Source: Candidatus Nomurabacteria bacterium
GTDB taxonomy: Bacteria; Patescibacteriota; Minisyncoccia; Phycocordibacterales; UBA9973
Length of the DNA stretch: 64,000 nucleotides
Reading direction: 5' to 3'
Assembly (NCBI GenBank): GCA_026396015.1
Contig: JAPLXP010000014.1
Span: 15,944 to 79,943, forward strand
The notes beneath the pieces were generated by a model, which did no database searches, was not told where the DNA came from, and was given only the letters and a program-made list of their open reading frames with translations. Shown in pieces: positions 17,591 through 61,625 of the stretch; positions within the stretch are counted from its first letter, which is position 1, and each line of letters opens with the position of its first letter. The position numbers were made by a program, and so were the translations under genes.

Positions 17591-17660
17591 TTAGTTTCTA
17601 GGTTCTAGTGACTAGGTACTAGTATATTTTCTTTACTAGAAGCTAGTCACTAGAACCTAA
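17591..17660. promoter_or_regulatory. CTAG-rich palindromic intergenic element (family C): aggttctagtgactag ... ctagtcactagaacct
   Basis: Perfect 16-bp inverted repeat around an AT-rich spacer. It lies between the NusB-Nudix stop and the rnc start. The same motif recurs at ~52058, ~61000, ~61590 and ~58430. Confidence 0.6.
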
Positions 17661-18562
17661 TTCTTTGTTAATATTTCAATAGCTTTTGTGAGAAGCGGAA
17701 TCATATTTTCATAAATACGTAGTCCTGCTATCTCCTCGATTGGGAACCATTGCGCCCCATCGAGACCTCCTGTACCCTTTTCAAGTGTGATTTCTGTATA
17801 TTCTGATTCACCGAGAAAGAATACAACTTGCTTACGAATCTTTCCTTTTTCTGGGTGATTTGCTATGTATTCGTTGCGTCCAAGGATTTCCTTAATTTTA
17901 ATATCAAGATCCATTTCTTCTTTTATCTCACGAATAGCACCTTGTTCTTCATTCTCTCCATCTTCAATACTACCCTTGGATAATGTCCAGTATCCAAACA
18001 CATCATGAACAAAAGCAAAATACAATTTGCCATCATGATTTGAATAAACTACAGCTCCAGCTTTCTTTTCAATTGGGAATTTTGCAGGGTCAGTCTCAGT
18101 GAATTTTGGATTCTTCTTTTTGCTGACATCATCTTTGCCTGGCTCACCGATCTCCTTGTACACACCACCGAGGACTCCGTTTATAAACTTACTTGAATTC
18201 TCTCCACCAAAACTTTTAGCAAGTTCGATAGACTCATTTATAGCTACCTTTGGAGGAACCTGTGTTCTATCACCAAAAAGAAGCTCGTAGAGCCCCATAC
18301 GTAGAATATTACGATCAACTATAGATATCTTTTCAATTGGCCAATCAGGAGCAGCTTTTTCAATAATCTCATCGATTATAGCCTTCTTTTTTACGACACC
18401 GTTAAAAATCTCTTCTATGAAAGAGTTATCATCGAGGCCTGGACCAAATTCCTCTATATTGCGATCAAGCATAACAGTAGGAGATTCATCCTTATTCACA
18501 CCGAAATCCCACTCAAAGAGTGTTTGTAGAACAATTGAACGTGAAAGGTGCCTGTTTGCCAT
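17657..18562 (-). CDS. nusB: NusB antitermination factor fused to a C-terminal Nudix hydrolase domain
   Basis: N-terminal 140 aa are NusB-like (HLSRSIVLQTLFEWDF...AINESIELAKSFGGENSSKFINGVLG). The C-terminal half carries a Nudix box GSIEDGENEEQGAIREIKEEMDL (G-x5-E-x7-REUxEExGU). Confidence 0.8.
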   Translation of the reverse strand: MANRHLSRSIVLQTLFEWDFGVNKDESPTVMLDRNIEEFGPGLDDNSFIEEIFNGVVKKKAIIDEIIEKAAPDWPIEKISIVDRNILRMGLYELLFGDRTQVPPKVAINESIELAKSFGGENSSKFINGVLGGVYKEIGEPGKDDVSKKKNPKFTETDPAKFPIEKKAGAVVYSNHDGKLYFAFVHDVFGYWTLSKGSIEDGENEEQGAIREIKEEMDLDIKIKEILGRNEYIANHPEKGKIRKQVVFFLGESEYTEITLEKGTGGLDGAQWFPIEEIAGLRIYENMIPLLTKAIEILTKN

Positions 18563-18643
18563 AATTTTAGCTTTTTGAAAGCTTAAAGCTTTAGGCGTTA
18601 ATATAGTTTTTTAAACCTATATTAATGCGCCAAAACTCAAAGC

Positions 18644-18856
18644 TTACTTTGACTTTGTTTTTGTTGCTTTTTTTGTAACTTTCTTCACCACATCGAGAAC
18701 TTTTCTACCACGATACATGCCGCAGTTCTTGCAAACTGAGTGAGTCTCTTTTGGAGCCTGACAATTTGAACAAGCACCAAAAACTGTGCCTTTCAAAGCA
18801 TGATGTGAGCGTCGATTCCCTGTATGAGAACGTGTATGTCGCATTCGTACTACCAT
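18644..18856 (-). CDS. rpmF: 50S ribosomal protein L32 with K-rich C-terminal tail
   Basis: MVVRMRHTRSHTGNRRSHHAL...C-x2-C...C-x2-C matches the L32 zinc ribbon. The track ORF begins upstream at 18907, but the internal Met fits L32. Confidence 0.85.
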   Translation of the reverse strand: MVVRMRHTRSHTGNRRSHHALKGTVFGACSNCQAPKETHSVCKNCGMYRGRKVLDVVKKVTKKATKTKSK

Positions 18857-18896
18857 AAATACAAGTATACTGATTTTTACATAAAATGCAAATAAA

Positions 18897-18928
18897 AAGC
18901 CACTCATTCAGAATGAGTGGCTTTTTTG
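18897..18928 (-). terminator. intrinsic terminator
   Basis: aaaagccactcattcagaatgagtggcttttttg hairpin plus U-run downstream of the 18942..19709 gene. Confidence 0.7.
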
Positions 18929-18941
18929 TTTTTGCGACAAA

Positions 18942-19709
18942 TCAACGGCTTGCCTTGATATTTTTTTTCAAAAAATTAAATTTTTTGGGGTTTGATTCAA
19001 TAACAAACCTCAGTCCTTTTTCAAAATTATTTGAATGACCGTTATATAGTGATGCTCCGGTGCATTCACTAATTTCTTCAGAATAAGACCTGATAATTTT
19101 AGGATCAGGAGACCCAATAAAAGAACTAGGTGCATCTATGTCCATAGAAACAAAGTTCAATTTAAAATGACATGCAACTTCTGAGACTGACAATAAAGAT
19201 ACTATTCCGACCCTTGTTGCATCAATTTCCTCTTTTAATTCCCTTTTAACTGAATTAATCTGAGTTTCTTCGATTAAACGCAAAAAAAGATCCTCACTTT
19301 TATTTTTAAAAGTATCTTGGACTTTTTTGAATAAATTAGCAGTAAACTCATTAAAAATAGGATTTGCTGTTGCAAAATCTGTGATGCCATTAGAGTCCGA
19401 TACATACTGACGATTAAGTACATCAATCTCCATGTAGAGATATTCCAAAGAATGATCTCTATGGCCTGAAGATGTAAAACATTGTACCATATTGTCTATG
19501 GCTTTAAGCAAATCCTCACCAATAAATTTACCTCCAGGAATTCTTTTTTGAATTTCAAATTTGGAAAATTTATAATCTACTAACCAAACTCTTGGCGTCT
19601 CTCTTAGATCAAAAGACACGCAATTTACTGCGTAATTAAAAGTGTTAGGATTCTGAAAAACAGAATTCAAACCAGAGCCCGAGCGGGTCCCAATATCATT
19701 TTTTTTCAT
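18942..19709 (-). CDS. hypothetical protein
   Basis: 255-aa ORF with coding-like composition. No motif I can assign. Confidence 0.4.
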   Translation of the reverse strand: MKKNDIGTRSGSGLNSVFQNPNTFNYAVNCVSFDLRETPRVWLVDYKFSKFEIQKRIPGGKFIGEDLLKAIDNMVQCFTSSGHRDHSLEYLYMEIDVLNRQYVSDSNGITDFATANPIFNEFTANLFKKVQDTFKNKSEDLFLRLIEETQINSVKRELKEEIDATRVGIVSLLSVSEVACHFKLNFVSMDIDAPSSFIGSPDPKIIRSYSEEISECTGASLYNGHSNNFEKGLRFVIESNPKKFNFLKKNIKASR

Positions 19710-19811
19710 ATTTAATGTTTTAAATTTAAAAGTATTATATCACAACAGCATAATAAAGTCAATAATATAAAAGTCTTACAATGTAAAGTTTTTATGATAT
19801 AGTAAAAAGAT

Positions 19812-21557: not shown

Positions 21558-21567
21558 AGCGGTTTTT
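21542..21567. terminator. bidirectional terminator hairpin
   Basis: aaaaaccgctcatagagcggttttt between the convergent thrS and pilin genes. Confidence 0.75.
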
Positions 21568-21571
21568 AATT

Positions 21572-24523: not shown

Positions 24524-24557
24524 AAAATCTGCCTAGGTCCGACCTAGGCAGATTTTT
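24524..24557. repeat. REP-A palindrome copy 1 (aaaatctgcctaggtccgacctaggcagatttt)
   Basis: 14-bp perfect stem with tccga loop, overlapping the RAYT-A stop. Identical copy at 25257..25290. Variants at 24943..24967 and 39466..39490. Confidence 0.85.
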
Positions 24558-25233
24558 AAATACTGTAATTTTCAAAAAAATCAAACAATTCCCTCGTGTG
24601 ATTTACACGAATATGATCTGGTAATATTTGCCTATCTATTATTTTAGAATACTTTCTGCTGTCCACAAAGTAATCAAAGAAACTAGAGTACTTATATTTT
24701 TTCAAATAATCTATTGTTTTATTTTTATCGTTAATACCATTTATTTTCCAATCTTTTTGGATCAATTTTACAGGGTTCAAGTGAACATAAGAAAAAAGAT
24801 AGTTAAAATAATTCTCTTCACCCACATGATTAGATTTAAATTTTCCCTCAAATAAAGAGCCTGTGCGTCCATATTTTTTATTAAAATACATTGAGTACGA
24901 AGTAGAAACTTTACGAATAAATTCAGTTATAGGATTAAACTTTTCGCCTAGGTCCGACCTAGGCGAAATAAGAATAATATGAAAATGATTTGGCATAAGG
25001 ACCCAAGCTAAAACATTTACCAAAGTTTCCCCTCTTTCAAAATCAAATGAATCAATATTATTTCTAACAATTGAATTTCTAAAATTAAATTTCAGCTCTG
25101 AATTTGCAATATAGAGGAGCTTAGTAAAACGTTCATAATCTTCATCATCTAAAAATATCTGACTCTTTCCATTGCCACGATTGTAGATATGATAAAATTC
25201 GTTTTGCACTAAATTTGTTTTTCGCAATGACAT
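24556..25233 (-). CDS. REP-associated tyrosine transposase (RAYT, IS200/IS605 Y1 HUH family), copy A
   Basis: YHIYNRGN N-terminal motif, HUH motif LMPNHFHIIL, catalytic Tyr region YLFSYVHLNP. Bracketed on both sides by identical REP-A palindromes. Confidence 0.8.
   Translation of the reverse strand: MSLRKTNLVQNEFYHIYNRGNGKSQIFLDDEDYERFTKLLYIANSELKFNFRNSIVRNNIDSFDFERGETLVNVLAWVLMPNHFHIILISPRSDLGEKFNPITEFIRKVSTSYSMYFNKKYGRTGSLFEGKFKSNHVGEENYFNYLFSYVHLNPVKLIQKDWKINGINDKNKTIDYLKKYKYSSFFDYFVDSRKYSKIIDRQILPDHIRVNHTRELFDFFENYSI
24943..24967. repeat. REP-A copy embedded in-frame in the RAYT-A coding sequence
   Basis: ttcgcctaggtccgacctaggcgaa encodes SPRSDLGE just after the HUH motif. Confidence 0.8.
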
Positions 25234-25256: not shown

Positions 25257-25290
25257 AAATCTGCCTAGGTCCGACCTAGGCAGATTTTTT
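25257..25290. repeat. REP-A palindrome copy 2
   Basis: Same 33-mer as 24524..24557. It sits between the RAYT-A start and the stop of the 862-aa surface protein gene. Confidence 0.85.
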
Positions 25291-27877
25291 ATTGTTGTGG
25301 AGTAATTTCTGGGGATGGTGTTTGCGCAGGTGCTGGATTTACAATCACTCCCCCCGCAGGAGCTGGGTTTTCATCCACTACAAGAGGCGCCACAGGCTCT
25401 GGACTCACCACAACTGGAGCAGGAGCATTCACCACTACGCACTCCCCTGGTACTGTCTGCATCGCACCACTCACGACTTTCACACAGAATGGATCACCTG
25501 TCTCCTCATCGTAGATTGTAATACCTGTACGCTTTGCAGGACTACCTATGTGCAAAGTCTGCACAGTCAAATCTTTGATTGATGCCATAGTGCCTGACAC
25601 TTGAGTCACAACTCCACCAAAGAAATCAGACATCAGATTAGATACACCATGACTTCCAAGATTTGAATTCTCGAGAGCCTTCACACGCAAATCCATTGCA
25701 ACTATTTTTGAATTCTCTTCTTTTACAGATGCCATCAGTATTCCGTTTACAGATACTTGATCAATCATATTACCCACCATGAATGCAGGATTTACTTCAT
25801 CTGCGATATATCCAATACGAGTCTTTGCTAGCGGTGAATCTGATCCGTATCCATTTACTTCACGAATATATCTGAATGTATGCAATGGTGCATCTAGAAC
25901 CATTTGCAATGAGGCACTGTAGTCTGTGTAATCTGCTATATCTTGCTTTGTATCACGAGTAGATGTCTGTGCTCCTACCACGGTACCGGCTGTGTCGTTT
26001 GCATTACTTGGTGATGCTGTATTGATGCGAATGTTTCCTGCTGCATCTTGCCATACGTATCCAGCTGTACCAGCTTTACTTTGGAAGTTTATAGATCCAG
26101 CGCCAGTATTTGTAGCATTTGTATTGCGCCCTAGAGTAAACACTGGACCAGCCAAACCAGCACCTAGATCCGAAGAACCTATGTTTAAGGATCCAGTATT
26201 CGTCACATTAAACTTACTCACATAACTTCCACCTCCAGTACCAGCATCAATCAGATATTGAGCACCAGAACCCAAAGTTGTTTCCGTGCGATTGATCCAT
26301 AAATCTGTCGCTGCTGCTGTACCTGTCTGACTGAGATTTGGAGTTATTTTAAGAGTAGAATTATTACCTGAAGATTGTGTCTGGGAACCAGTACCAAGTG
26401 TCACATATGCAGCAGTGGTAGAAATAGATTGATTACCAAATGTCATTCCCAAATTGCTTGCTGCTCTAAATATAGTAGAAGTCATTCCATTTGGGGCATA
26501 CGCAGAACTAGATGTCACAAAAAATTGACTTGATCCATTTATTTGTAAATCGATAAGAGAGCCCGTATAACCCGTAGCTTCATTTACAGCTAAAGATGTT
26601 CCGCCTGCTTGACCTATAAATTTACCAGCGGTTGACCCATCGAATGCATTTCCTCCGATAGATAATGTGCCGTAAGCTGTAACTGCAGTAGGTGCTACTC
26701 CGATGGTCAATTTACTTGCTGGGGTGATTGTGCCGATACCCAACCTATGATTTGTAGAATCCCAATAGAATTGACCTCCAGCTGTAGTATCTTGGGAAAG
26801 CACCCCAGATGTACCAGCAAATAATATTGATCCGATAGTTGGAGTAAAAAATGTTGGAGCACCCGATCCACCAGACACTACAGCCTGACCACTAGTTCCA
26901 GTAGATGTATATGCATGTGCTGTACCTGTACCATATCCGATACCACCAGCTGTCGGAGTAGCAGATGAATTTGTACCTCCTTGAGCTATAGTCACAAGTG
27001 CATTATCTGTGAGGATAGTAGCAGAGATATTTGGAAGAGTGAAAGTCTTTGTCGAAGTAGTAGGACCTGAGAATGAAGTGAACGCATTACCTGTACCACC
27101 ATTTGTAGAACCTAAGGTTCCAGTCACAGTAGATGTACCGAGGGCAACTGTAAATCCAGTACCAGTAGAACCACTAGTGAGTGTGCCCACTGTAGCGATA
27201 TCTGTACCTACGAGCTTTGAAGCTGCGATACTACCAGCTAGGTCAGCATTCAAAACTGCACCTGTAAGCGATAACTTGGAATACGCTATTGAGCCAGCGA
27301 GGTCAGAATTTAAAATTGCACCAGAGAGTGAAAGCTTTGAATATCCGATAGACCCAGCGAGCATAGCACTAGTAACTGCACCAGAATTTATTGTCCAAGA
27401 TGCACCAGATGAAGCTACTGTTATGTCACCTTTGTTGCCATCAGTAACACCAGCCCCTCCACAAGCACCCCATGCAGGTGCACCTGATGAAGCAGAAGTA
27501 AGACACAATGTAGCACCTGCATTTGGAGCTAGCACACTAAGAGCTCCAGTTCCATTACCATATATAATTCCATTTGAAGTAAATGAACCAACTCCTGTAC
27601 CACCCTGGCCGACAGTCACTGCTGCATTAGTAGTCAGCACTGTGGCATTCGCATCTGGAAAAGTAAAAGTACGAGTAACAGTAGGACCTGTCACAGCAAA
27701 AACACCATCACCAACTTCTGACCACCCATGACCTGGATTTGGAGTAGTAGCAAACACAAGCTGAACAACAGAAAAAACTACTACAGAAAATAGCAGAGTA
27801 TAAGCAACATAGTGGAATGAAAATCGTGGTCGGATGGTGTGTAAGAATTTTTTAAATAATAATTTTAAATTAAACAT
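25289..27877 (-). CDS. large Gly/Thr/Ser/Ala-rich surface (tail-fibre-like) protein with C-terminal endosialidase-chaperone (peptidase S74-like) domain
   Basis: N-terminal signal/TM segment. Long G-x-G-T repeats and LAGSIAxSKLSL repeats. LGIGTITPASKLTIG fibre-like motif. C-terminal STRDTKQDIADYTDY...LHTFRYI resembles the intramolecular chaperone auto-processing domain. Pro-rich extreme C-terminus. Confidence 0.55.
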   Translation of the reverse strand: MFNLKLLFKKFLHTIRPRFSFHYVAYTLLFSVVVFSVVQLVFATTPNPGHGWSEVGDGVFAVTGPTVTRTFTFPDANATVLTTNAAVTVGQGGTGVGSFTSNGIIYGNGTGALSVLAPNAGATLCLTSASSGAPAWGACGGAGVTDGNKGDITVASSGASWTINSGAVTSAMLAGSIGYSKLSLSGAILNSDLAGSIAYSKLSLTGAVLNADLAGSIAASKLVGTDIATVGTLTSGSTGTGFTVALGTSTVTGTLGSTNGGTGNAFTSFSGPTTSTKTFTLPNISATILTDNALVTIAQGGTNSSATPTAGGIGYGTGTAHAYTSTGTSGQAVVSGGSGAPTFFTPTIGSILFAGTSGVLSQDTTAGGQFYWDSTNHRLGIGTITPASKLTIGVAPTAVTAYGTLSIGGNAFDGSTAGKFIGQAGGTSLAVNEATGYTGSLIDLQINGSSQFFVTSSSAYAPNGMTSTIFRAASNLGMTFGNQSISTTAAYVTLGTGSQTQSSGNNSTLKITPNLSQTGTAAATDLWINRTETTLGSGAQYLIDAGTGGGSYVSKFNVTNTGSLNIGSSDLGAGLAGPVFTLGRNTNATNTGAGSINFQSKAGTAGYVWQDAAGNIRINTASPSNANDTAGTVVGAQTSTRDTKQDIADYTDYSASLQMVLDAPLHTFRYIREVNGYGSDSPLAKTRIGYIADEVNPAFMVGNMIDQVSVNGILMASVKEENSKIVAMDLRVKALENSNLGSHGVSNLMSDFFGGVVTQVSGTMASIKDLTVQTLHIGSPAKRTGITIYDEETGDPFCVKVVSGAMQTVPGECVVVNAPAPVVVSPEPVAPLVVDENPAPAGGVIVNPAPAQTPSPEITPQQ

Positions 27878-32077: not shown

Positions 32078-32227
32078 CTTTTTGTTTTTAAATAACTAGA
32101 TCGTTAGTTCACTAGTTCAGGAGTATTATATCACAAAATATGCCTGCAAGTCAAGCTTAAAAAGGCTATATTTTAAAGGGTTTTGTGTGGATATTGCAGG
32201 ATTTAATAGATTATGATACAGTATACG

Positions 32228-32392
32228 TACTAGTGGCTTCGGCCTCCGAGAAAGCTCCCGCAAGGGAGCTTTCGATTTTATACTTGCAGTCTATATAACA
32301 GTATGGTATTATAAAAATATTGAGAGGTTGCCTCTCTTGCTCGCAAGAGCCGATAGCCCCGCAAGGGGCTATTATAATTTATAAAGCTTACT
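32228..32392 (+). ncRNA. candidate structured small RNA: cluster of tetraloop-capped hairpins (1 UUCG, 3 GCAA, 1 UUGC)
   Basis: Hairpins ggcTTCGgcc (32235-44), gagaaagctcccGCAAgggagctttc (32248-74), gagaggTTGCcctctc (32322-36), gctcGCAAgagc (32339-50) and atagccccGCAAggggctat (32353-72). Possible promoter ttgcag-17-tacagt at ~32195-32223. GNRA loops appear only in + orientation. No overlapping protein gene except a spurious 62-aa track ORF. Confidence 0.35.
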
Positions 32393-32764
32393 AAAGTATT
32401 CTTGTATTTTAGAATATTCTTCGTCTGAAAGAATATATTTCCTCTCTGTAAGTCTCCTCTTGTCAAAACTACGTATCTGATACACTAGTGCTGTATGCAA
32501 AATACCGTCATCTGTTTTTATAATACAAGAATATTTTCTATTTTTAACTTTTGAGGTAAGTGGTATACCAATAAAACTTTCACTACCTTCGGCATTTATC
32601 ACAAGAACTGGTCTTGTATAATCATCCCCTTTACCATACACCTCACTACCCACATTCATCCCAATACTACACCACCAAATTTCTTTTTCTTGTGGATGAT
32701 TAAATGTTTCATTTTGATCAATCTTTATTTTCTTTTTATTCCACTTATCAAAATCTTTATCCAT
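32372..32764 (-). CDS. MazF/PemK/EndoA-family endoribonuclease toxin, no adjacent antitoxin gene
   Basis: VGSEVYGKGDDYTRPVLVINAEG...IGIPLTSK and ALVYQIRSFDKRRLTERKYILSDEEY align with B. subtilis EndoA (VGSEQGGVRPVLVIQND...; LLEQIRTIDKQRLTDK...). It has a ~35-aa N-terminal extension. Confidence 0.75.
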   Translation of the reverse strand: MDKDFDKWNKKKIKIDQNETFNHPQEKEIWWCSIGMNVGSEVYGKGDDYTRPVLVINAEGSESFIGIPLTSKVKNRKYSCIIKTDDGILHTALVYQIRSFDKRRLTERKYILSDEEYSKIQEYFSKLYKL

Positions 32765-32796: not shown

Positions 32797-35778
32797 CTAT
32801 GCTGATTTATATATTCTAGCCCTCGCGCAGTTTGGACATACGGAATCCCTGCCGTAGGATTTGAAATTACATGGACGGTTTATCCACACACCAGTTTTTA
32901 AATCTCTATCATACTCAGTAATATCACGGACCAATAGATCAATCTCCTCATTTGTGATACTCGTCTTGTAAATACCATTCTTGTCTCCCTTTTTGGCCTC
33001 TAGGAATTCCAATTGAGATTCTGATACTCGATCATTGTTATTCGCACCGTGAATAAGGTACGAGTACATTGCGAGTTGTCGCATATAGCTACTCATACTC
33101 TCGTTTTCGCCCCGTTTTTCAATTTCTGATTTTGTTTTTACGCTACCTGTCTTGAAATCCGTCACTCGAAAAGTATTTTTTTCTATCTCCTCTGTCAGGT
33201 CCACCTTTCCATAGAAAAGTAAGCTTGGAAAGCGAGAATCTCGATACGATAGCGGTCGCTCTGTCATATAATTCTTTATATTGGGCAGTCTTTCCTTTAC
33301 CCAGACAGATACTATTCCGACAGCTTCTTTTTGTAATCTTTTAACCATTGATTCTTCATAAATATTTTGCTTGTGTATCTGATCGAGGATTATATCTTCA
33401 AGCAAATCTCCGTTCTTCTTCAATACTTGCTCGATCGTACCGTGAACCACATTACCAAAGACTAGACTCTCAGAAACTACGTCCGGCAAGCGCAATAGAT
33501 TCCTAAAATACCACTTCCATGGGCATTCAAAAAAGTTGTTCAGCATCGTCACCGATACCTTTGTCTTTTGGTATTCCTCAGCGACCATATCGGTCAGATC
33601 TTTCGTTGAAAAATCTACCTCTGCATGAGGTACAGCAGTGACATATGATTTTGGGTCCCTGCTCAGAATTTGTTCTTCTACTTGATTGAAATTTTTCTTT
33701 ATAAATAGGTCTTCTGGCAGTTCCGCGATGATATGTGACAATTCCTGATCGCCACCTGTATATGAGTATCTAGAATATGAAAAAGTACAGAATCGCTTTG
33801 CTCGAGTCAGTGCTACATAGAGCTGCTTTTTCACCACTTCAGCATCTTTTTCTTCTATTTTATTTTGTACATCTTCTGGGAGTGTGAATGCCTGCTTTTT
33901 GCCATGCATCAATGTCTTTTCATCCATATGAGCCACCCAGACGAAATCAAATTCCAATCCTTTTGAGGAGTGAAGTGTCAGAACCTTTACACCTTTGTCG
34001 CCATAGAATACGTCTAGTGGTAGATCCTCGCCATAAGATTTGAGTCGGTCGATAAAGTCGATAAATCTTTTCAGTGTGAATTTCTGATGCTCCCGCTCGC
34101 TCTTTTCCCTCTCCCCTTGCGCTAGGTGCAGTACTGTACGCACCACCTCCACGCGACGAATCAGATCATCGTGATTCTCTGCTGTATCTAGTAGTAGACT
34201 CTCGCCCACATATTGGACTAATTCGTACACATCACGAGTATTGGATTCCTCAATATAGGATTTCAATTTATCACCCCAGGAATTCACTGGATCAATACCT
34301 GTAAATAAATCTTTTTTGCCGCCACCGAGATCCTCTACGGATAGCTTGTAAGTATTCACACTCTGCAAAAACTTATGTGCCGAGAGTGGTGGTATCTTAT
34401 TTATCGGATCAAACAAAGATTCAGAGATAGAGATATTGTCATATGGATTTAATACTATTCGAAGTGCCCGAATCAGAGTATCTGCCTCGGGTACACCAAA
34501 GAGTGTCAGTATGCCTGATGAAGCCACAGGTATACCGCGATCTCGGAGTATCTGCACAGCGTTTTTGACTTGATAATTTTTTGGCACAAGAATCGTGCAT
34601 TCATCAGGACTCACACCATCTGCCACCTTCGCCTCTATCTCCATAGCAGCAGCAATGATCTCGTCACGAGGATATTCGCATTCATAGAGCTGTAGTTTAT
34701 GCATCTCTCCATGATTACTCTTGAGTTTTTCCAGTGTCATCGAACTTCGCAGTAGTGTGTCTGCACTATCGAGAATCGCCTGTGTAGAACGATAATTCTC
34801 CACCAATGTGATCAACTTTGCTTTACCAAAAAGCGTCTTAAAACTCTCAAAATATTCGATAGACGCACCCCCAAAACCATAGATGAGCTGTCGGTCATCA
34901 CCCACAACGAATATATTTGGCAATTCTGTATCGTGCCAGATAGCACGAAGTATCGCATTCTGCGTAGCACTACTATCCTGATGCTCGTCTACGAGTGCAT
35001 ACAGATATCGCTCGCGAATAGTCGCCTGTGCATCATCGGAATTTACCAGAATATGCCATGCGTATTTGAGCACATCATCATAATCACAGAGACCTCGCTC
35101 CTCTTTTAATTTCTCGTATTCACGATAGAAAATTACGACTTCTTTTGTCCTCTCGAGTCCATCGATTTTCTTTTCTACTTCTTTTTTAAGTTGTCCTTTG
35201 CTCTCGCCACGACTAGAAATACTATCCGGGTCATTCTTGATCCGATCAATCTCGAAATTTATAGATGCCAAAAACTCTTCAGGCTTTATATTTTCTCTTT
35301 TCAATAATGAAATCAGACTTTTGATATCTCGGAAAAACATGCCTGAATTACCTCGTGGACGAATGTAGACCCAGCTACCATTCTCTAGAATCTCATCCAC
35401 GAGGGCGATATTGCTCGTCTCATCTAGTATCACCGGTGGCTTTTGCATGTCGAGAACCTGGTGGAATTCCTCGAGTATATTCATAGCAAAACTATGAAAA
35501 GTAGAAATCTTGATCTGTGTAGCTGGAGGGCCAATATATTTCAATAAACGCTTACGCATCTCTTGCACCCCAGAATTAGTAAAAGTTAGACATAAAATTT
35601 CGTTTGGTTGTGTTTGGTTTGAACTATTTAAAATATAAGCAATACGCAGTGACAATACCTGAGTTTTTCCAGTACCGGGACCCGCCACTACCATCACTGG
35701 ACCGTCGATAGTATCTACGGCCAATTTTTGCTCTTTATTTAGCTTTTTATATGCAGAATTATATAAGTCTTGATTCAT
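32797..35778 (-). CDS. UvrD/AddA-like SF1 helicase fused to C-terminal RecB-family PD-(D/E)xK nuclease with Cas4/AddB-like Fe-S cysteines
   Basis: N-terminal LNKEQKLAVDT...VVAGPGTGKTQVL Walker A and UvrD motifs. C-terminal ...FECPWKWYF ... DFKTG...K nuclease core. Terminal RPC-x10-C-x2-C cysteine cluster. No AddB/RecC partner is adjacent. Confidence 0.8.
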   Translation of the reverse strand: MNQDLYNSAYKKLNKEQKLAVDTIDGPVMVVAGPGTGKTQVLSLRIAYILNSSNQTQPNEILCLTFTNSGVQEMRKRLLKYIGPPATQIKISTFHSFAMNILEEFHQVLDMQKPPVILDETSNIALVDEILENGSWVYIRPRGNSGMFFRDIKSLISLLKRENIKPEEFLASINFEIDRIKNDPDSISSRGESKGQLKKEVEKKIDGLERTKEVVIFYREYEKLKEERGLCDYDDVLKYAWHILVNSDDAQATIRERYLYALVDEHQDSSATQNAILRAIWHDTELPNIFVVGDDRQLIYGFGGASIEYFESFKTLFGKAKLITLVENYRSTQAILDSADTLLRSSMTLEKLKSNHGEMHKLQLYECEYPRDEIIAAAMEIEAKVADGVSPDECTILVPKNYQVKNAVQILRDRGIPVASSGILTLFGVPEADTLIRALRIVLNPYDNISISESLFDPINKIPPLSAHKFLQSVNTYKLSVEDLGGGKKDLFTGIDPVNSWGDKLKSYIEESNTRDVYELVQYVGESLLLDTAENHDDLIRRVEVVRTVLHLAQGEREKSEREHQKFTLKRFIDFIDRLKSYGEDLPLDVFYGDKGVKVLTLHSSKGLEFDFVWVAHMDEKTLMHGKKQAFTLPEDVQNKIEEKDAEVVKKQLYVALTRAKRFCTFSYSRYSYTGGDQELSHIIAELPEDLFIKKNFNQVEEQILSRDPKSYVTAVPHAEVDFSTKDLTDMVAEEYQKTKVSVTMLNNFFECPWKWYFRNLLRLPDVVSESLVFGNVVHGTIEQVLKKNGDLLEDIILDQIHKQNIYEESMVKRLQKEAVGIVSVWVKERLPNIKNYMTERPLSYRDSRFPSLLFYGKVDLTEEIEKNTFRVTDFKTGSVKTKSEIEKRGENESMSSYMRQLAMYSYLIHGANNNDRVSESQLEFLEAKKGDKNGIYKTSITNEEIDLLVRDITEYDRDLKTGVWINRPCNFKSYGRDSVCPNCARARIYKSA

Positions 35779-36302: not shown

Positions 36303-38042
36303 ATGTCTATACTTTTTACATATTTAAAGCATTATTGGAAGCTACTATTATTAGCTCTAGTTCTCGCTACTATCAATCAAGTCTTCTCACTTCTTGACCC
36401 CCTCATATTCCGTCATGTGATCGATGGGTATGCCACAAAATTTGATCAATATACATTCGCAGAATTCGCGCGTGGAGTAGGATACCTATTGCTATTGGCA
36501 GTTGGTGCAGCATTTGTATCTCGTGTAGCCAAGAATTTCCAGGATTACTATGTGAATACCATCACTCAGCGTATCGGCGCAAAAATGTATGCTGATGGGA
36601 TATCGCATTCACTATCTCTTCCTTATCAGCAATTCGAGGACGAACGCAGTGGCGAGACACTAGGTAAAATACAGAAGGTTCGTACAGATATTGAAAAATT
36701 GATAGCATCCATGATAAATGTGATCTTCGTATCACTCGTAGGATTCGTCTTTGTCATTATCTACGCATTAAAAGTCTACTGGGTGATCGCACCACTGTAT
36801 ATACTCGCGATACCATTGATCGGTGGAGTCAGCTATGTATTGAGCAAGAAGATTAAAAAAGTTCAGAAAACTATCGTAGCAGAGACTGCCGCACTAGCAG
36901 GCACTACGACAGAATCCCTCCGCAATATTGAGCTCGTAAAGAGTCTAGGCCTAGCCGAGCAAGAAATAGGAAGACTGAACAATACGACAGGTAAAATACT
37001 AGAACTGGAGCTTAAAAAAGTGAAATACCTACGAAGTCTGTCATTTGTCCAAGGTACGATTATAAACTTTGTCCGTACTGCTATCCTATTTATAATGCTG
37101 TATTTGATTTTTGCTCAGAAGATTACATTTGGAGAATTCTTTTCACTATGGATCTACTCATTCTTCCTCTTTGGGCCCCTACAGGAACTTGGAAATATTA
37201 TTGGTACATATCGTGAGAGTGAAGCATCGTTGGAAAACTTTAAAAAGATCCTCGATAGTAAACCAGAAGAGACACCAGAGAATCCAAAACATATCGGAGA
37301 TATAAAATCACTATCATTCAAAGAAATAAAATTCAAACACAAGATGGCAAGTGTCGAAGCTCTGAAGAATGTTTCTTTTGAAGTAAAGCAGGGTGAGACA
37401 ATAGCATTCGTAGGACCATCTGGAGCAGGCAAGACTACACTCGTAAAGCTCCTCGTAGGCCTCTACAAGCCCGCAGGCGGAGAGATTTCTTACAACGAGA
37501 TACAGAGTGCAGATGTAGATCTAAATGAGCTACGTAGTCAAATAGGATTCGTCACTCAGGATACCCAATTATTCGCTGGAACGATAAGAGAAAACTTATT
37601 ATTCGTGAATCCGGGTGCTACAGACGAGATGTGTCTAGACGCATTAAAGAAATCTGCTTGTGATGGACTACTCGCTCGTGCAGAAAAAGGTCTTGATACA
37701 GTTATCGGTGAAAACGGTGTAAAAGTCTCTGGTGGTGAGAAGCAACGTCTATCTATCGCCCGCGCACTATTACGTAAACCAAAGTTATTGATATTCGACG
37801 AGGCGACAAGCTCGCTCGACTCTCTGACAGAGGAAGAAATATCAAAGACAATCCAATCTGTCAGTGAATCAAAAAATCACATCACCGTATTGATCGCGCA
37901 CCGCCTATCGACAATCATGCATGCAGACCGCATCTATGTATTGGAAAAAGGAAGTGTCACAGAGAGTGGTAGTCATACAGAGCTACTCTCACAGAGCGGA
38001 CTATATGCAGCTATGTGGAGACAACAAATCGGAGAGAATTAG
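36303..38042 (+). CDS. ABC transporter, fused permease/ATP-binding protein (MsbA/lipid exporter-like)
   Basis: Six predicted TM helices, then Walker A GPSGAGKTT, signature LSGGEKQRLSIARAL and Walker B LIFDEATSSLD. Confidence 0.9.
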   Translation: MSILFTYLKHYWKLLLLALVLATINQVFSLLDPLIFRHVIDGYATKFDQYTFAEFARGVGYLLLLAVGAAFVSRVAKNFQDYYVNTITQRIGAKMYADGISHSLSLPYQQFEDERSGETLGKIQKVRTDIEKLIASMINVIFVSLVGFVFVIIYALKVYWVIAPLYILAIPLIGGVSYVLSKKIKKVQKTIVAETAALAGTTTESLRNIELVKSLGLAEQEIGRLNNTTGKILELELKKVKYLRSLSFVQGTIINFVRTAILFIMLYLIFAQKITFGEFFSLWIYSFFLFGPLQELGNIIGTYRESEASLENFKKILDSKPEETPENPKHIGDIKSLSFKEIKFKHKMASVEALKNVSFEVKQGETIAFVGPSGAGKTTLVKLLVGLYKPAGGEISYNEIQSADVDLNELRSQIGFVTQDTQLFAGTIRENLLFVNPGATDEMCLDALKKSACDGLLARAEKGLDTVIGENGVKVSGGEKQRLSIARALLRKPKLLIFDEATSSLDSLTEEEISKTIQSVSESKNHITVLIAHRLSTIMHADRIYVLEKGSVTESGSHTELLSQSGLYAAMWRQQIGEN

Positions 38043-42935: not shown

Positions 42936-43319
42936 TTAGTTAGCTTTTGGAGCAGCAGTGCCTGCTTTGTTTGCATCCTTCTTTGCTTTCATTTCTGCCT
43001 TAGCAGCTTCACGCTTTGCATTTGCATCTGCCTTTGCAGCATCAATTTTTGACTTTGCTTCTGCTTTTGCAGCATCTTTCTTTGCTTTTGCATCTGCCTT
43101 TGCAGCATCTTTCTTTGCTTTGATTTCTGCTTTTGTAGCTTCTTTCTTTGCTTTAGCATCTACTTTAATTGAAGCTTTTTCTGTACTACCTGCATTCGCT
43201 GTATTTACTCCAGCAGCTGGAGTAGCTACTTCTGCAGCAAATACTGGAGATGCTACAACTGCTAATAGCATAAGACCCATAGAACCACTAACCAATGCTT
43301 TTTTGAAATTATTTTTCAT
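42936..43319 (-). CDS. secreted Lys/Ala-rich tandem-repeat protein
   Basis: Signal peptide MKNNFKKALVSGSMGLMLLAVVASPVFA, then KAKKDAAKA(D/E)AK repeats, seen in the DNA as ~33-bp tandem repeats. Confidence 0.5.
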   Translation of the reverse strand: MKNNFKKALVSGSMGLMLLAVVASPVFAAEVATPAAGVNTANAGSTEKASIKVDAKAKKEATKAEIKAKKDAAKADAKAKKDAAKAEAKSKIDAAKADANAKREAAKAEMKAKKDANKAGTAAPKAN

Positions 43320-51220: not shown

Positions 51221-52054
51221 TTATTTTTTTGCTATAAGCAAAACATTATTTAATAAAATCGCAATTGTCACCGGACCCACACCACCAGGAACCGGAGATA
51301 TAAACGAAGCGACACCAGACACACTATCTGTATCTACATCACCTACTATACCCCCATCGGATTCTGATGTACCAGCATCGATGATCACCACACCTTCCTT
51401 TACCATAGACCCATCGATGAATTTACCCACACCAGCAGCAGAGATCAGAATATCAGCAGACTTAATTATAGAATCCTTGTCCTCTGTAGACTTTGTGATA
51501 GTAGTGATATCAAATCCCCTGCGTGACAGTATATGTGCCACTGGCTTGCCAACTAATTCCCCTTGACCTACAATCACAATTTTTTTATTATTTAAATCTA
51601 GATTCAATGAGTCTAGAATATGCACACACGATAATGCAGCTGGATATCCAGTGTCATTCATATTCTCATAAAAAGCGATCCGTGCACCGTCTCCTAGACA
51701 GTCTACGTCGAGATGTGGAGCGATAGTATTCACGACTAAATCCTTGCTGAATTTTTCCGGTAGAGGTAGCTGGACGATCACACCGCAAATATTTTGAATT
51801 TGATTTATTTTTTTTATTTCTTCAATCAGTTCTTCTTGAGAAATCGATTCTGAAAAATGCGCGTCATGAAAAAGAATACCTAGATTTGTGGCGGCCTTCT
51901 TTTTCATATTTACGTATTGAGAAGACACTACGTCATCCCCTACTAGGACATCACAGAATACAGGCTGGAATGATAATTGCTCAACTTCAGATTTTACATC
52001 CAACAATATTTCATCTCTTATTTTTCTTCCATTTATTATTTGTGTTTGCATCAT
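51221..52054 (-). CDS. folD: bifunctional methylenetetrahydrofolate dehydrogenase/cyclohydrolase
   Basis: IINGRKIRDEIL N-terminus, VIVQLPLP, VVGQGELVGKPVA and FISPVPGGVGPVTIA motifs. Confidence 0.88.
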   Translation of the reverse strand: MMQTQIINGRKIRDEILLDVKSEVEQLSFQPVFCDVLVGDDVVSSQYVNMKKKAATNLGILFHDAHFSESISQEELIEEIKKINQIQNICGVIVQLPLPEKFSKDLVVNTIAPHLDVDCLGDGARIAFYENMNDTGYPAALSCVHILDSLNLDLNNKKIVIVGQGELVGKPVAHILSRRGFDITTITKSTEDKDSIIKSADILISAAGVGKFIDGSMVKEGVVIIDAGTSESDGGIVGDVDTDSVSGVASFISPVPGGVGPVTIAILLNNVLLIAKK

Positions 52055-52057
52055 AAA

Positions 52058-52135
52058 TTAGTTTCTAGGTTCTAGTGACTAGGTTCTAGGATTTTTAACT
52101 AATCACTAAAAACTAAATACTAGAACCTAATTTAA
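52058..52135. promoter_or_regulatory. CTAG-rich palindromic intergenic element (family C copy)
   Basis: aggttctagtgactaggttctagg ... tactagaacctaa between the ftsW stop and folD start. Core is identical to the 17600..17615 copy. Confidence 0.6.
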
Positions 52136-53254
52136 TTATATTCCCAGAAATTCGTTTCTCATATCATCCTTATGTGCCACTCTATTATACTTCCTCATCC
52201 CCATCAATATACCCAATCCGATAAATTCTGAGAGCAGATGAGATCCTCCGTAGCTGACAAATGGTAGCGTGATACCTGTGACAGGAGCCAGGCCAATATT
52301 CATACCTACATTGATTATAAAATGACTCATAAAGTAGATAGCCAAACCCATACCATATAGCATTTCAAAATTCGTCGCTCCGAGCATGGCATTGTGTAAT
52401 ATACGCCATATTATCAAACCTAGCAACACAAAGAGCAGTACCACACCTACAAAACCCCACTCTTCTGCGAAGGCTGCAAAGATAAAGTCAGTCTCGTATT
52501 CAGGTAGGAAGTTCAATCGTGACTGAGTGCCGAATCCTACACCCTTGCCTAGCAGCTGACCAGAACCTACTGCTATAGTAGATTGATACACATTATACCC
52601 TGATCCATGCACGTCTGACAGTGGGTGCAGGAAGTTCAAAATACGATGCTTTTGATACGGATGAAAGGCAAACATCCAGAGAATTCCAAAAGTCAAAATA
52701 CCAATTCCAATTACTGCGCCTAGATGCTTCAAGGAAATGCCAGACACTAGAGCCATACCAAACCAGATAAAGAAAATGATCATCGCAGAACCAAAGTCTG
52801 GCTGCAGGAATACGAGCATGAACGGAATAAAAGCATACAAACCAGAAATAAATAAATGCTTGATATTGCGAATCTCGACATGGCGACGAGAGAAATATTT
52901 TGCTAGTAGTAGTATCACTACGAGCTTCATCATATCAGAAGGTTGAAAAGAAAATCCACCAAATGAGAACCAACTCTTTGCACCATTTGATACGTGACCA
53001 GCTACGAATAGAGCCAAGAGCATCAAGGAGAAAAAGGCAAAAAGAGCAATCAGTACTTCAGTCTTTTTCAAGAATCTAAAATCAAAAAAAGATAGTGTAA
53101 AAAATACTGTAAAAGATATACCTATCCAAATCAATTGGTGGTTAAAGAGTGATGTTGCACCGGTGAATGACTTCATCACCACTAATCCTGCGCCCAATAC
53201 AGGCAGCAAGAATAAAAATAGTAGCCAGTCTATCTGTAGTAAGTTATTCTTCAT
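52136..53254 (-). CDS. ftsW: SEDS-family peptidoglycan glycosyltransferase (FtsW/RodA)
   Basis: 10 predicted TM helices. Conserved GYNVYQSTIAVGSGQLLGKGVG and C-terminal PFVSYGGSH motifs. Confidence 0.85.
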   Translation of the reverse strand: MKNNLLQIDWLLFLFLLPVLGAGLVVMKSFTGATSLFNHQLIWIGISFTVFFTLSFFDFRFLKKTEVLIALFAFFSLMLLALFVAGHVSNGAKSWFSFGGFSFQPSDMMKLVVILLLAKYFSRRHVEIRNIKHLFISGLYAFIPFMLVFLQPDFGSAMIIFFIWFGMALVSGISLKHLGAVIGIGILTFGILWMFAFHPYQKHRILNFLHPLSDVHGSGYNVYQSTIAVGSGQLLGKGVGFGTQSRLNFLPEYETDFIFAAFAEEWGFVGVVLLFVLLGLIIWRILHNAMLGATNFEMLYGMGLAIYFMSHFIINVGMNIGLAPVTGITLPFVSYGGSHLLSEFIGLGILMGMRKYNRVAHKDDMRNEFLGI

Positions 53255-54216: not shown

Positions 54217-54277
54217 AGTGTAGCAAGAACAGTGTAGCAAGAACGGTTCTTGCTACACTGAACGGTTCTTGCTACAC
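54217..54277. repeat. REP-B doublet: (gtgtagcaagaac)x2 then (gttcttgctacac)x2
   Basis: Two direct plus two inverted copies of the GTAG-initiated 12-13-mer can form a long nested hairpin. Same family as the copies around RAYT-B at 63371-63409 and 63589-63610. Confidence 0.8.
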
Positions 54278-54780: not shown

Positions 54781-54795
54781 TAGTTGAACTCTTTG

Positions 54796-54905
54796 TTCTG
54801 GCGACAACCTACTTTTCCCACGAATGAGTATCATCGGCGCAGATGGGCTTAACTTCCGAGTTCGGAATGTTATCGGGTGTGACTCCATTGCCAAATCACC
54901 AGAAC
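54796..54905 (-). rRNA. rrf: 5S ribosomal RNA
   Basis: Reverse complement GTTCTGGTGATTTGGCAATGGAGTCACACCCGATAACATTCCGAACTCGGAAGTTAAGCCCATCTGCGCCGATGATACTCATTCGTGGGAAAAGTAGGTTGTCGCCAGAAC. It contains the CCGAAC..GAAGTTAAGC and GCGCCGATG 5S hallmarks, and the terminal helix I pairs. Confidence 0.88.
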
Positions 54906-55039
54906 AAAATTTTCAACTAACGTATTGTATCAACAAATTTTGTCGAAAACAATAAACGATGTGTCATGATATGTGAAAACTGAATGCTATTTGATAGAGT
55001 GTCTCCCCGTAGGGAGATATACAAGATTGTTTGTGATTT

Positions 55040-58005
<2,966 letters not shown>

Positions 58006-58305
58006 GGAAATTTAAAAACCACATTTTCTTCCCTCTCTCGATAAGAGGAAAGCGATACACAATTTTGCTTTGTTGACGGGAACCGCTTCCCAGCAAAAGG
58101 TGTATCCTTTTATTTCTATCTTGCACTCTATTTCCATCCCGTATAAAAGACCCTAAAAAATTTTAGGATAACAGTGGGATGGAATAGCATTCAGTTTTCA
58201 AATATCATGATGTTTTTAAACAAAAAAAATAGCCTTTCGGCGGTACAAGCGAAACCATAAGAGGTTTAACTTCTCCGCAGATTTTGATTACTTTTCTTTA
58301 ATAAC

Positions 58306-58345
58306 ATCGTAGGAGCATTCTATACTAACGGAAAAAGAAAGTCAA
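58306..58345 (-). promoter_or_regulatory. candidate rRNA operon promoter (TTGACT-17-TAGAAT) ~300 nt upstream of the mature 23S 5' end
   Basis: Minus strand gcTTGACTttctttttccgttagtaTAGAATgctcc. The leader contains a 12-bp hairpin at 58126-58190. Confidence 0.45.
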
Positions 58346-58398
58346 GCATTTAGATTAGGTTCTATTAATTAATGGCTAGGGGCTAGTAAATATAAAGA

Positions 58399-58426
58399 AA
58401 AAGAGCCTGAAAGGCTCTTTTTCTTT
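58399..58426 (-). terminator. intrinsic terminator downstream of the 58486..59172 gene
   Basis: aaaaagagcctgaaaggctctttttc. Confidence 0.75.
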
Positions 58427-58485
58427 ACTAGAAACTAATTATTAAAAACTAGTCACTAATCATATGACGAAGCTTTATTCTGTGC

Positions 58486-59172: not shown

Positions 59173-59273
59173 AATAGAAATATATTTTACTAATTAATAA
59201 TTAAACGTACTTTGATAAAGCTTCGACCTCCTCAAGTACTATTTATATTATAACAAAAAATAGCCCATAAAGG

Positions 59274-59945: not shown

Positions 59946-59989
59946 AAAAAAAGACCCTTTATGGGGGTCTTTTAAATAAATAGAATATA

Positions 59990-60589: not shown

Positions 60590-60593
60590 TAAA

Positions 60594-60622
60594 AAAACAC
60601 CCCCGTACGGGGTGTTTTTTTG
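60594..60622 (-). terminator. intrinsic terminator after rplL
   Basis: aaaaaaacacccccgtacggggtgtttttttg. Confidence 0.8.
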
Positions 60623-60630
60623 TAGGTTGA

Positions 60631-60993
60631 TTACTTAAGTGTAACTTTACCTCCTGCGTCTTCAATTTGCTTTTTTAGAGCTTCTGCTTCTGCCTTCTTC
60701 ATACCGTCCTTTAGAACAGATGGAGCTGCATCTACTAAATCCTTTGCCTCTTTAAGACCTAGGGCTAGAGCTTCTTTAACTACCTTCATAACACCGATTT
60801 TCTGCTCACCAGCTGATGTAAGTTCAACTGTAAATGAGTCTTTAACTTCACCAGCTTCTGCTGCTGCAGCTGGAGCTGCTGATACTGCTTGCGCTGATAC
60901 TCCGAATTTTTCTTCAATAGCCTTTACAAGGTCATTGAGTTCTAGAACTGAAGCGTTTTCAAGTTCTGTAAGAAATGAATCAAATTTTGCCAT
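60631..60993 (-). CDS. rplL: 50S ribosomal protein L7/L12
   Basis: [32 protein letters not shown]...[24 protein letters not shown]. Confidence 0.92.
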
Positions 60994-61000
60994 ATTTTTG

Positions 61001-61097
61001 TTAGGTTCTAGTAGCTAGGTTATAGCTTCTAGAACAATTAATTAATTGAATAAACTTTTTTGTATTTTACTAGCAACTAGAAACTAGTCACTAGAAA
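61001..61097. promoter_or_regulatory. CTAG-rich palindromic intergenic element (family C copy) between rplJ and rplL
   Basis: ttaggttctagtagctagg ... actagaaactagtcactagaaact. The 3' arm overlaps the rplJ stop codon. Confidence 0.55.
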
Positions 61098-61583
61098 CTA
61101 CTTCGTGCCTGCGACTGCAGATACTGCAATAGCGAGACGTTGCATTGGAGACTTGAGCAAGTATGCGATCTGTGATAGCAATACTTCTCGAGATGGGATT
61201 GTAGCAACCTTTTCCATCTCAGCCTTATCCATATACTTTCCTTCAAATACACCACCGACAATAGAGATATTCTCTTTATGTGTCTTTGCAAATGCGTAAA
61301 CTTCACGAGCCGGAGCAAGTAAATCTGTACCATATGCCATAGCGATCTGACCAGATAGTTCTGGCATGTCACCTGTCACTCCTTTTACAGCGAGGGCTCT
61401 CTTTAGGAGAGTCTTCTTTGCAACGTAGTAACCGATGCCATCTTTTTGTAAACTGCGGCGAAGTTCGTTTACGTCCTTTACCTTCAATTTATCAAATTTT
61501 ACAAAAACTACAGATTGAGCATCTACTAGAGCTTTGTCTAGTGTAACTGCAATCTCTACTTTCTTTTCCTTTTTTAATGCCAT
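61098..61583 (-). CDS. rplJ: 50S ribosomal protein L10
   Basis: MALKKEKKVEIAVTLDKALVDAQSVVFVKFDKLKVKDVNELRRSL matches the L10 N-terminal domain. Confidence 0.92.
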   Translation of the reverse strand: MALKKEKKVEIAVTLDKALVDAQSVVFVKFDKLKVKDVNELRRSLQKDGIGYYVAKKTLLKRALAVKGVTGDMPELSGQIAMAYGTDLLAPAREVYAFAKTHKENISIVGGVFEGKYMDKAEMEKVATIPSREVLLSQIAYLLKSPMQRLAIAVSAVAGTK

Positions 61584-61585
61584 AA

Positions 61586-61625
61586 TGTTAGGTTCTAGGA
61601 GCTAGGTTCTAGTGACTAGTAAATA
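61586..61625. promoter_or_regulatory. CTAG-rich palindromic element (family C copy) immediately upstream of the rplJ start
   Basis: ttaggttctaggagctaggttctagtgactag. Confidence 0.55.

Follow-up and report, generated by a model that had tools for sequence, protein, structure and literature searches.

Heptad arrays of CTAG beside start and stop codons in a Candidatus Nomurabacteria contig: a possible repeat family at gene boundaries

The DNA analysed here is a stretch of 64,000 nucleotides from Candidatus Nomurabacteria bacterium (positions 15,944 to 79,943 of contig JAPLXP010000014.1, assembly GCA_026396015.1), referred to below as the window, and the elements in question are short arrays rich in CTAG that lie in the gaps ahead of rnc, folD, rplL and rplJ. 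These arrays are built of heptads and array content differs sharply between related species. They are gained and lost on the timescale of species divergence and are not inherited as fixed regulatory sites. The explanation that we prefer, and to which we give about an even chance of being correct, is that the arrays are a repeat family like the repetitive extragenic palindromes and their mosaic elements (REP/BIME), the small miniature inverted-repeat transposable elements (MITEs) or the short tandemly repeated repetitive (STRR) sequences, and that they sit at gene boundaries as tolerated passengers.

The initial annotation had described a 16-nt core that recurs with its reverse complement as inverted pairs in four short intergenic gaps. 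The recurrence is not due to chance. When up to 3 mismatches were allowed, AGGTTCTAGTGACTAG was found 10 times in the window compared to 0.54 expected, none of 100 shuffles reached 10, and all 10 copies (17600-17658, 52067-52128, 61003-61099 and 61590-61619) lie inside the four gaps that had been named. The genes that follow these gaps are, as had been read from the sequence, those of RNase III, FolD, L7/L12 and L10. The fixed 16-mer did not hold up, and the true unit is a heptad of CTAG plus 3 nt, (CTAGNNN)n. At the four sites CTAG is spaced by 7, 7 and 7 nt, and Tandem Repeats Finder reported a period of 7 at 52059-52131, 61069-61100 and 61589-61612, while CTAG is not enriched window-wide (245 observed versus 220 expected). 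A typical array has four heptads and a terminal CTAA, that is about 5 cores in about 32 nt. In the mRNA sense the layout at each site is (CTAGNNN)4-CTAA, then 3-7 nt, then ATG; hence the position just upstream of the start codon was correctly recognised, but the distance is 3-7 nt from the terminal CTAA and not the 5-10 nt that had been given. The rnc and folD sites have an additional CTAGAAA-CTAA unit between CTAGAACC and the ATG. The inverted pairing was confirmed at three sites, A to C below, where a second arm with the reverse complement layout, TTAG-(NNNCTAG)n, starts with the upstream stop codon or no more than 5 nt from it, and at sites A and C the TAG with which the upstream gene stops doubles as the first unit of this stop-side arm. 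Site D has one arm, and its inverted partner was not detected in the inverted-arm analysis. All sites and their flanking genes (NusB-NUDIX fusion/RNase III, FtsW/FolD, L10/L7/L12 and long leader/L10) are on the minus strand, and the features are as follows.

17587-17656, minus strand: site A gap, between the NusB-NUDIX fusion gene and rnc
17591..17622, minus strand: site A start-side arm with 5 cores, CTAGTAC CTAGTCA CTAGAAC CTAGAAA CTAA, then TCTA, then the rnc ATG (17586)
17636..17660, minus strand: site A stop-side arm, TTAG GTT CTAG TGA CTAG CTT CTAG, which includes the NusB-NUDIX stop TAG (17657-17659)
52055-52135, minus strand: site B gap, between ftsW and folD
52058..52089, minus strand: site B start-side arm, CTAGAAC CTAGTCA CTAGAAC CTAGAAA CTAA, then TTT, then the folD ATGATG
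52099..52130, minus strand: site B stop-side arm, decayed, with TTAG in 4 of 5 cores, 5 nt after the ftsW TAA (52136-52138)
60994-61097, minus strand: site C gap, between rplJ (L10) and rplL (L7/L12)
61001..61032, minus strand: site C start-side arm, CTAGAAG CTATAAC CTAGCTA CTAGAAC CTAA, 7 nt before the rplL ATG (60993)
61070..61100, minus strand: site C stop-side arm, TAG TTT CTAG TGA CTAG TTT CTAG TTG CTAG, the first TAG being the rplJ stop (61098-61100)
61584-61625, minus strand: site D gap, between a long leader and rplJ
61588..61619, minus strand: site D single start-side arm, CTAGTCA CTAGAAC CTAGCTC CTAGAAC CTAA, 4 nt before the rplJ ATG (61583)
61620..61670, minus strand: probable partner arm of site D in decayed form, TTAG AAA CAGG TTT GAAG AAT TTGG and so on, placed by alignment
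61654..61772, minus strand: putative L10 leader RNA (Rfam RF00557, 33.3 bits, E = 0.002, under the gathering score)
58340..58455, minus strand: degenerate two-arm copy around an intrinsic terminator, between a mechanosensitive-channel gene and the 23S promoter (TTGACT-N17-TAGAAT)

With the degenerate copy the window holds 5 sites in 64 kb. This copy had been noted before as one of two weaker ones and is degenerate, its arms flanking the terminator; the other feature, near 32100, has a CTAG/CTAA spacing of 8 nt and is not a clear member.

For the comparison with relatives, loci were fetched via L10 and FolD homologues and were thus chosen independently of the motif. The nearest relative is 97% identical in L10 and 99% in L12 protein, and the flanking genes of the relatives are 79-96% identical in nucleotides. 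Nevertheless, arrays of the window type were not found at all in 10 syntenic loci from relatives (about 155 kb). The gap between rplJ and rplL is 25-30 nt and A/T-rich in eight of nine relatives, all eight lacking the site C start-side arm, and in one of them (L209) the rplJ stop codon is TAA and the gap 27 nt; the ninth (L211, 10487-10594) carries a different CTAG/CTAA heptad palindrome with G-rich spacers. The site D array is shared with L038 and L081 only, whose L10 is 89% identical, and is missing in 9 other relatives. L038 and L081 have the same decayed upstream arm at rplJ as the window; this putative partner lies between the terminator of the L10 leader and the intact arm, and it is absent from L204 and L209. 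In L204, 20 plain nt separate the leader terminator from the rplJ ATG. In relative L213 the gap between ftsW and folD is 7 nt and the whole site B element is absent, and upstream of its rRNA promoter there is a different terminator and no array. The boundaries in the empty-site alignments are not clean. Among 120 other Paceibacteria 16S loci there were only 4 arrays in about 730 kb. As the same genes in relatives are array-free, the genes concerned do not need the arrays. The initial annotation had named two outcomes that would speak against a regulatory element, and they came out differently: the arrays are absent from relatives with conserved gene order at rplJ, at rplJ-rplL, at ftsW-folD and upstream of the rRNA genes, whereas random MITE-like placement was not seen and placement relative to coding sequences is strongly polar. 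A side observation at site B is that the folD open reading frame (ORF) opens with ATGATG (52049-52054), where the L213 frame starts with the second of these codons. The first one was therefore probably brought in by the repeat insert, and the annotation of folD may begin one codon too early.

The family extends well beyond the window. In a collection of species-representative genomes, where every assembly is a different species, the exact 17-mer TAGGTTCTAGTGACTAG was found in 81 loci, mostly from metagenome-assembled genomes (MAGs) of Nomurabacteria/Paceibacteria. The polarity is strict. In low-GC loci 48 of 110 arrays have their CTAA end 2-8 nt before an ATG, which agrees with the mRNA-sense placement just 5' of start codons that had been pointed out for the window, and 39 of the 110, when read on the other strand, have it about 8 nt or less past a stop codon; only 5 have their opposite end next to a coding-sequence boundary. 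No start-side arm lies downstream of 23 of the 39 arrays that follow a stop. When the distance from CTAA to ATG was scored it was 2-8 nt in 43 of 60 cases, with a mode at 3-5 nt, and 35 of 51 start-side arrays had 5 cores. The cores are invariant and the spacers variable, those on the start side being G-poor and dominated by AAC, TCA and AAA. Genes preceded by an array include clpP (8 species), rplJ, rplL, rplT, rpsN, rplI, rpmA, rplK, nusG, dnaK, mreB, a clp ATPase, ssb, trxB, topA, folD and rnc, and genes followed by one include ftsZ, rplF, rplO, tig, efp, ssb and ftsW. In all 8 species with an array at clpP, a TGnTAnnnT promoter lies at -68 and the array occupies the last 35 nt or so of the 5' untranslated region (5' UTR). 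Arrays also overlap the 3' end of the gene upstream of mreB, and in L034 a gene is inserted between the tig-side arm and the clpP-side arm. Both the window and L066 have degenerate arrays ahead of rRNA promoters, where no coding sequence starts. Related but divergent repeats are (CTAGGTG)x9 with a typical arm beside a terminator in a Thiohalophilus MAG (L024, about 3209-3270), (AGCTNNN)n units beside CTAG arrays in L048 (about 5075-6030) and, from a BLAST search of plasmids, a (CTAGAAA)x29 satellite ending in CTAGAAACTAA on the Acinetobacter plasmid NZ_CP114259 (L203, 1396-1585). BLAST against phages gave no match to the arrays.

Stem-loops between cistrons had been predicted for these sites, and this was borne out at two of them. 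The inverted arms are 26 nt and 92% complementary at site A, 23-24 nt and 79-83% complementary at site B, and 37 nt and 76% complementary at site C. The predicted RNA hairpin of site A has a folding energy of -35.6 kcal/mol (z = -7.3) and that of site B of -24.7 kcal/mol (z = -4.3); in the RNA of site C each arm folds on itself and at site D there is the single arm. The stem at site A, of 17 bp plus 6 bp, lies directly 5' of rnc, and with RNase III encoded in the window this would fit processing by RNase III between cistrons, the perfect stem before rnc serving in autoregulation as in E. coli. It is known that E. coli rnc is autoregulated via a 5' stem and that RNase III cuts the Correia/NEMIS hairpins of Neisseria. 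We nevertheless regard this explanation as very unlikely, as at least half of the arrays are single arms, several two-arm sites have a terminator and a promoter between the arms so that the arms are on different transcripts and not necessarily on one RNA, and the arms are only 76-92% complementary, a complementarity that is not kept across species. An excess of sense-strand G-U pairs over A-C mismatches between arms (27 to 16, a hand count) is only suggestive. Bracket-like pairs of arrays far apart showed a weak excess. Closure of mRNA from 5' to 3' end was considered and rejected: start-side and stop-side arrays occurred on the same gene in 1 of 36 cases versus about 1.5 expected, in a test with a 100-codon minimum, which left out a short ssb gene of L025 with arrays on both its sides.

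We therefore return to a repeat family as the explanation that we prefer. Palindromic doublets, many copies in some genomes and absence in sister species are the reasons for grouping the arrays with REP/BIME, MITE and STRR sequences. Point mutation cannot have produced 32-nt arrays within the observed divergence, so they must have been copied into place, and spread by copying would account for them. A probable reason why they could be tolerated where they are lies in their design. The four-mer CTAG is its own reverse complement and the period of 7 is not a multiple of 3, and three heptad units give a TAG stop in all six frames; the G-poor arm has no ATG, GTG or TTG. The arrays are probably transcribed with the neighbouring genes, and the six-frame stops would allow an array to adjoin a stop codon, or even take its place, and to lie 2-8 nt from a start codon with no fused or spurious frames arising; the G-poor arm is the one retained beside the ATG. 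At two-arm sites the base of the hairpin would lie at the upstream stop and the downstream start, so that the insert is looped out and the two codons are kept close together; a 7-nt junction such as that of ftsW and folD might thus tolerate an insert of 74 nt because the hairpin would hold stop and start together. As there is no Shine-Dalgarno (SD) and anti-SD pairing in this lineage (see below), the bases before the start codon would be free to take an insert. The spread by copying, the tolerance through six-frame stops and hairpin geometry, and any effect on expression are our inferences.

Several observations weigh against this explanation and should be considered together. In the clpP 5' UTR of the 8 species the 5 cores are kept while the flanks diverge and the upstream neighbours differ. 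The start-side arm stays 2-8 nt from the ATG even in gaps of 200-390 nt, and it is intact while the partner arm decays. The 17-mer is common to about 50 species, which implies a conserved partner, be it an enzyme or a binder. At about 85% nucleotide identity, the relatives without arrays are not near-identical strains. No mobilising enzyme could be linked to the arrays, and none of the nine RAYT-like (REP-associated tyrosine transposase) genes that were examined is flanked on both sides by CTAG heptad arrays. The loops of two-arm copies are unlike one another, so these are probably not copies of one MITE, and no target-site duplication can be called because the palindrome itself includes the terminal TA on either side. 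It should also be noted that the conservation evidence was drawn from loci retrieved by the motif itself and is therefore biased. The persistence of the array at clpP, the retention of the start-side arm and the modest G-U excess suggest that some copies have been co-opted.

The window was placed in the Nomurabacteria/Paceibacteria of the candidate phyla radiation (CPR) by homologues and by the motif scan. Among its 57 genes only one has an SD-like tetramer at -20 to -4 (the background is 8%). As the window has no 16S gene and the only 16S in the 81 motif loci, that of L066, ends 50 nt before the 3' tail, a 20-mer from the L066 16S was used in a metagenome scan, which gave 120 Paceibacteria-type 16S loci (L083-L202). 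The 3' tail is GGAWYWWTTCMAAT in place of GGATCACCTCCTT in most of them, so the anti-SD has been lost, and a minority keep CCTCC. Tsurumaki et al. (2022) have described a Parcubacteria subgroup that lacks the anti-SD (PMC9297842), with which the 16S tails here agree, and the same paper raises the question of how translation starts in anti-SD-less Parcubacteria inside operons. In such a lineage the arrays could be a dedicated RNA signal in cis for SD-independent translation, with the G-poor arm, in which there is no start codon, as a pad 5' of the AUG for landing or re-initiation of the ribosome, and with the complementary arm beyond the preceding stop forming a coupling hairpin that would be opened by the terminating ribosome. 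The peak of the CTAA-ATG spacing at 3-5 nt and the uniform length would fit this, as would the fact that arrays follow promoters and the L10 leader within 5' UTRs, the range of genes preceded (clpP, dnaK, mreB, ssb, trxB, nusG, topA and many ribosomal protein genes), the start-side arm being retained as its partner decays, the G-U excess, and the near lack of SD-like tetramers. We consider this unlikely, however, because the same genes in relatives are array-free and have plain A/T-rich leaders, most Paceibacteria loci lacking the anti-SD have no arrays, and 39 arrays follow stop codons, the majority with no start-side arm downstream, to which the degenerate copies upstream of rRNA promoters are added.

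Two predictions about such a signal were examined and did not hold. Pairing with rRNA was rejected: against 92 related Paceibacteria 16S tails, mostly lacking the anti-SD, the array gave a mean duplex energy of -3.2 kcal/mol compared to -4.4 for shuffled arrays, and no excess pairing was found with the L066 16S or with the 23S and 5S of the window. The SD/anti-SD pairing raised in the initial annotation is thus not supported. An advantage of an unstructured leader was rejected also, as the predicted probability of an unpaired start region was 0.52 at sites with one arm, 0.48 at those with two and 0.49 in control genes, differences that are not significant, and predicted start accessibility is therefore no better than in controls. 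An observation apart from the arrays is that extended -10 elements (TGnTAnnnT) lie within 40 nt of the ATG in 14 genes of the window and several end 6-7 nt before it; genes with such an element upstream include 32372-32764, 32797-35778, 36303-38042 and 24556-25233. From the sequence, TGnTATAAT elements 6-7 nt before an ATG suggest leaderless mRNAs. The gene at 32372-32764 (minus strand) encodes a PemK/MazF-like toxin.

The regular period also brings to mind a protein that reads CTAG or UAG periodically, either a HutP-like oligomer that would bind both RNA arms and open the hairpin or a repressor of the omega/ribbon-helix-helix type that would bind contiguous heptads in DNA, with a regulon confined to the genomes that encode the protein. 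HutP of Bacillus subtilis binds UAG at a period of 7 (U498, U505 and U512), in two sites of three motifs each, with a 17-nt linker between them, which occupy the two sides of a terminator stem in the gap from the hutP stop to the hutH start (PMC2425495). In anatomy this is the nearest RNA-level parallel to the arrays: two clusters of UAG at a period of 7 nt, with a linker and between a stop and a start, are also the layout of sites A to C, where both RNA arms show UAG every 7 nt. Invariant cores with variable spacers would suit such a reader, about 5 cores suggest a fixed footprint, and the patchy presence would fit gain and loss of a trans-acting factor. The hut region is, however, one locus with a known protein and ligand, unlike the many loci per genome here, and in the arrays the spacers are not free, AAC, TCA and AAA being preferred, and conservation covers all of CUAG. 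A search of the 57 proteins of the window gave no member of the HutP, TRAP or similar families, although the factor could be encoded elsewhere. For a repressor on DNA the sites are misplaced, as they lie within operons and on the downstream side of promoters, and since a protein on DNA is unable to sense codons it would leave the polarity toward coding sequences unexplained. A protein-binding array is in our view quite unlikely. Broadly put, there is a small but real chance that the arrays are a cis element that marks coding-sequence boundaries on the mRNA of anti-SD-less Parcubacteria, whether as a pad replacing the SD or as the array of a UAG-reading oligomer; in that case they would be no passengers but parts of gene expression by co-option.

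A shared promoter or operator had been suggested in the initial annotation, and a terminator or processing role for the stem-loops. It is hardly credible that the sequence works as an UP element or shared promoter, or pairs with 16S in the manner of an SD. The position just 5' of start codons would allow it, and at two rRNA promoters a degenerate copy ends 4-6 nt ahead of the -35 hexamer. However, sigma-70-like sites number 5 compared to 5.4 expected from shuffling, TAGAAC does not end in the conserved T of a -10 hexamer, TGnTATAAT promoters lie 25-45 nt upstream of the arrays, and neither complementarity to rRNA nor use of SD sequences was found in this genome. At rplJ a terminator-like hairpin (61672-61687) follows the putative L10 leader, whose sequence is conserved in relatives, and as both lie upstream site D must be inside the rplJ 5' UTR. 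A terminator scan gave hits elsewhere and none at the arrays, whose hairpins are followed by CTAAYYY-ATG and have no T-run (no U-run in the RNA), so a terminator role is not supported. The heat-shock operators CIRCE and CtsR, which the arrays at clpP and dnaK had brought to mind, were rejected because the set of genes is much broader and the sequences differ. In Rfam 15 only rRNA and tRNA reach the gathering threshold in the window, and the sites match models of miRNA hairpins below threshold only.

Machinery for mobilising repeats is carried by these genomes, which speaks for a repeat family. Two RAYT/IS200-like Y1 transposase genes (63405-63950 and 24556-25233, both minus strand) have HUH and YxHxNP motifs, their Pfam and NCBIfam matches being weak. 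They are associated with other palindromes, AGCAAGAACNGTTCTTGCT at 63389-63405, 63593-63609 and 54237-54253, and CTGCCTAGGTCSGACCTAGGCAG at 24533-24548, 24948-24963, 25265-25280 and 39471-39486, with one copy beside the gene, one inside the ORF and the others in different parts of the window. The Y1 homologues of 7 further loci, those that cover both flanks, have a lineage-specific palindrome on either side, and several of these palindromes contain CTAGG. A direct link between the arrays and RAYT-like transposases was rejected since the flanking palindromes differ, being short and GC-rich.

Among known systems, the REP/BIME and REPIN-RAYT sequences of Gammaproteobacteria are like the arrays in that they are short intergenic palindromes, single or in inverted doublets, that form hairpins in mRNA and are patchy among genomes, and RAYT-like Y1 transposase genes occur in the genomes studied here as well. 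About half of the REPs of E. coli are within 15 nt of a stop codon. They differ in that the arms here have a period of 7 nt and are not a single imperfect palindrome, in that the heptad arrays abut start codons with fixed polarity and keep one sequence in about 50 species, and in the other palindromes that flank the RAYT-like genes. The STRR sequences of heterocystous cyanobacteria are tandem heptanucleotides, intergenic only and lineage-specific, and so share tandem 7-nt units in lineage-specific intergenic DNA with the arrays; however, STRR repeat one identical heptamer whereas only the CTAG core is fixed here, and the CTAG arrays are short (about 5 units), often have inverted arms and are polar toward coding sequences. 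Small MITEs of the Correia/NEMIS type are 60-110 bp long with terminal inverted repeats and TA-target-compatible ends, are co-transcribed and form hairpins. Inverted terminal repeats (arms of 23-37 nt, 76-92% complementary), co-transcription and hairpins would be common to both, but the arrays have loops that differ between copies, are frequently single arms, have terminal repeats that are internally periodic, and have no cognate transposase that we could identify. With the SD sequence they share a location a few nt upstream of start codons on the mRNA strand; unlike it, an array spans 32 nt, lacks complementarity to the 16S tail, is also found after stop codons and belongs to an anti-SD-less lineage. 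The heptad build and the strict polarity toward coding sequences are unusual features among repeats.

If the arrays are indeed a repeat family, then it is a CPR family of which no description was found in Rfam or in the literature searched, where CTAG heptamer repeats and CPR RNA motifs gave nothing relevant, and its design combines a palindromic four-mer core, a period of 7, stops in six frames and strict polarity toward coding sequences. Such arrays affect gene calling, as they supply or replace stop codons and add a spurious in-frame ATG, as at folD, and they are potential markers of lineage and of the turnover of intergenic DNA. If instead one of the readings as a translation signal or a protein array is true, the arrays bear on how translation starts inside operons of anti-SD-less Parcubacteria (PMC9297842).

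Some further features of the window were noted. Upstream of site A, NusB and a NUDIX hydrolase domain are fused in one protein of 301 aa (17657-18562, minus strand). Directly upstream of the L10 leader is a pair (61977-62489, minus strand) of a weak ParD-like antitoxin and a YafQ/RelE-like toxin, and the usual rplK-rplA were not found there. The 23S-5S operon (54796-58005, minus strand) has its own promoter (about 58302-58330, TTGACT-N17-TAGAAT) with no 16S upstream, so the rRNA genes are unlinked. Tandem repeats of another kind lie inside ORFs, at 42973-43161 (33/66 nt, ORF 42936-43319) and at 27234-27361 (60 nt, ORF 25289-27877), and the proteins of these two ORFs have no match in Pfam.

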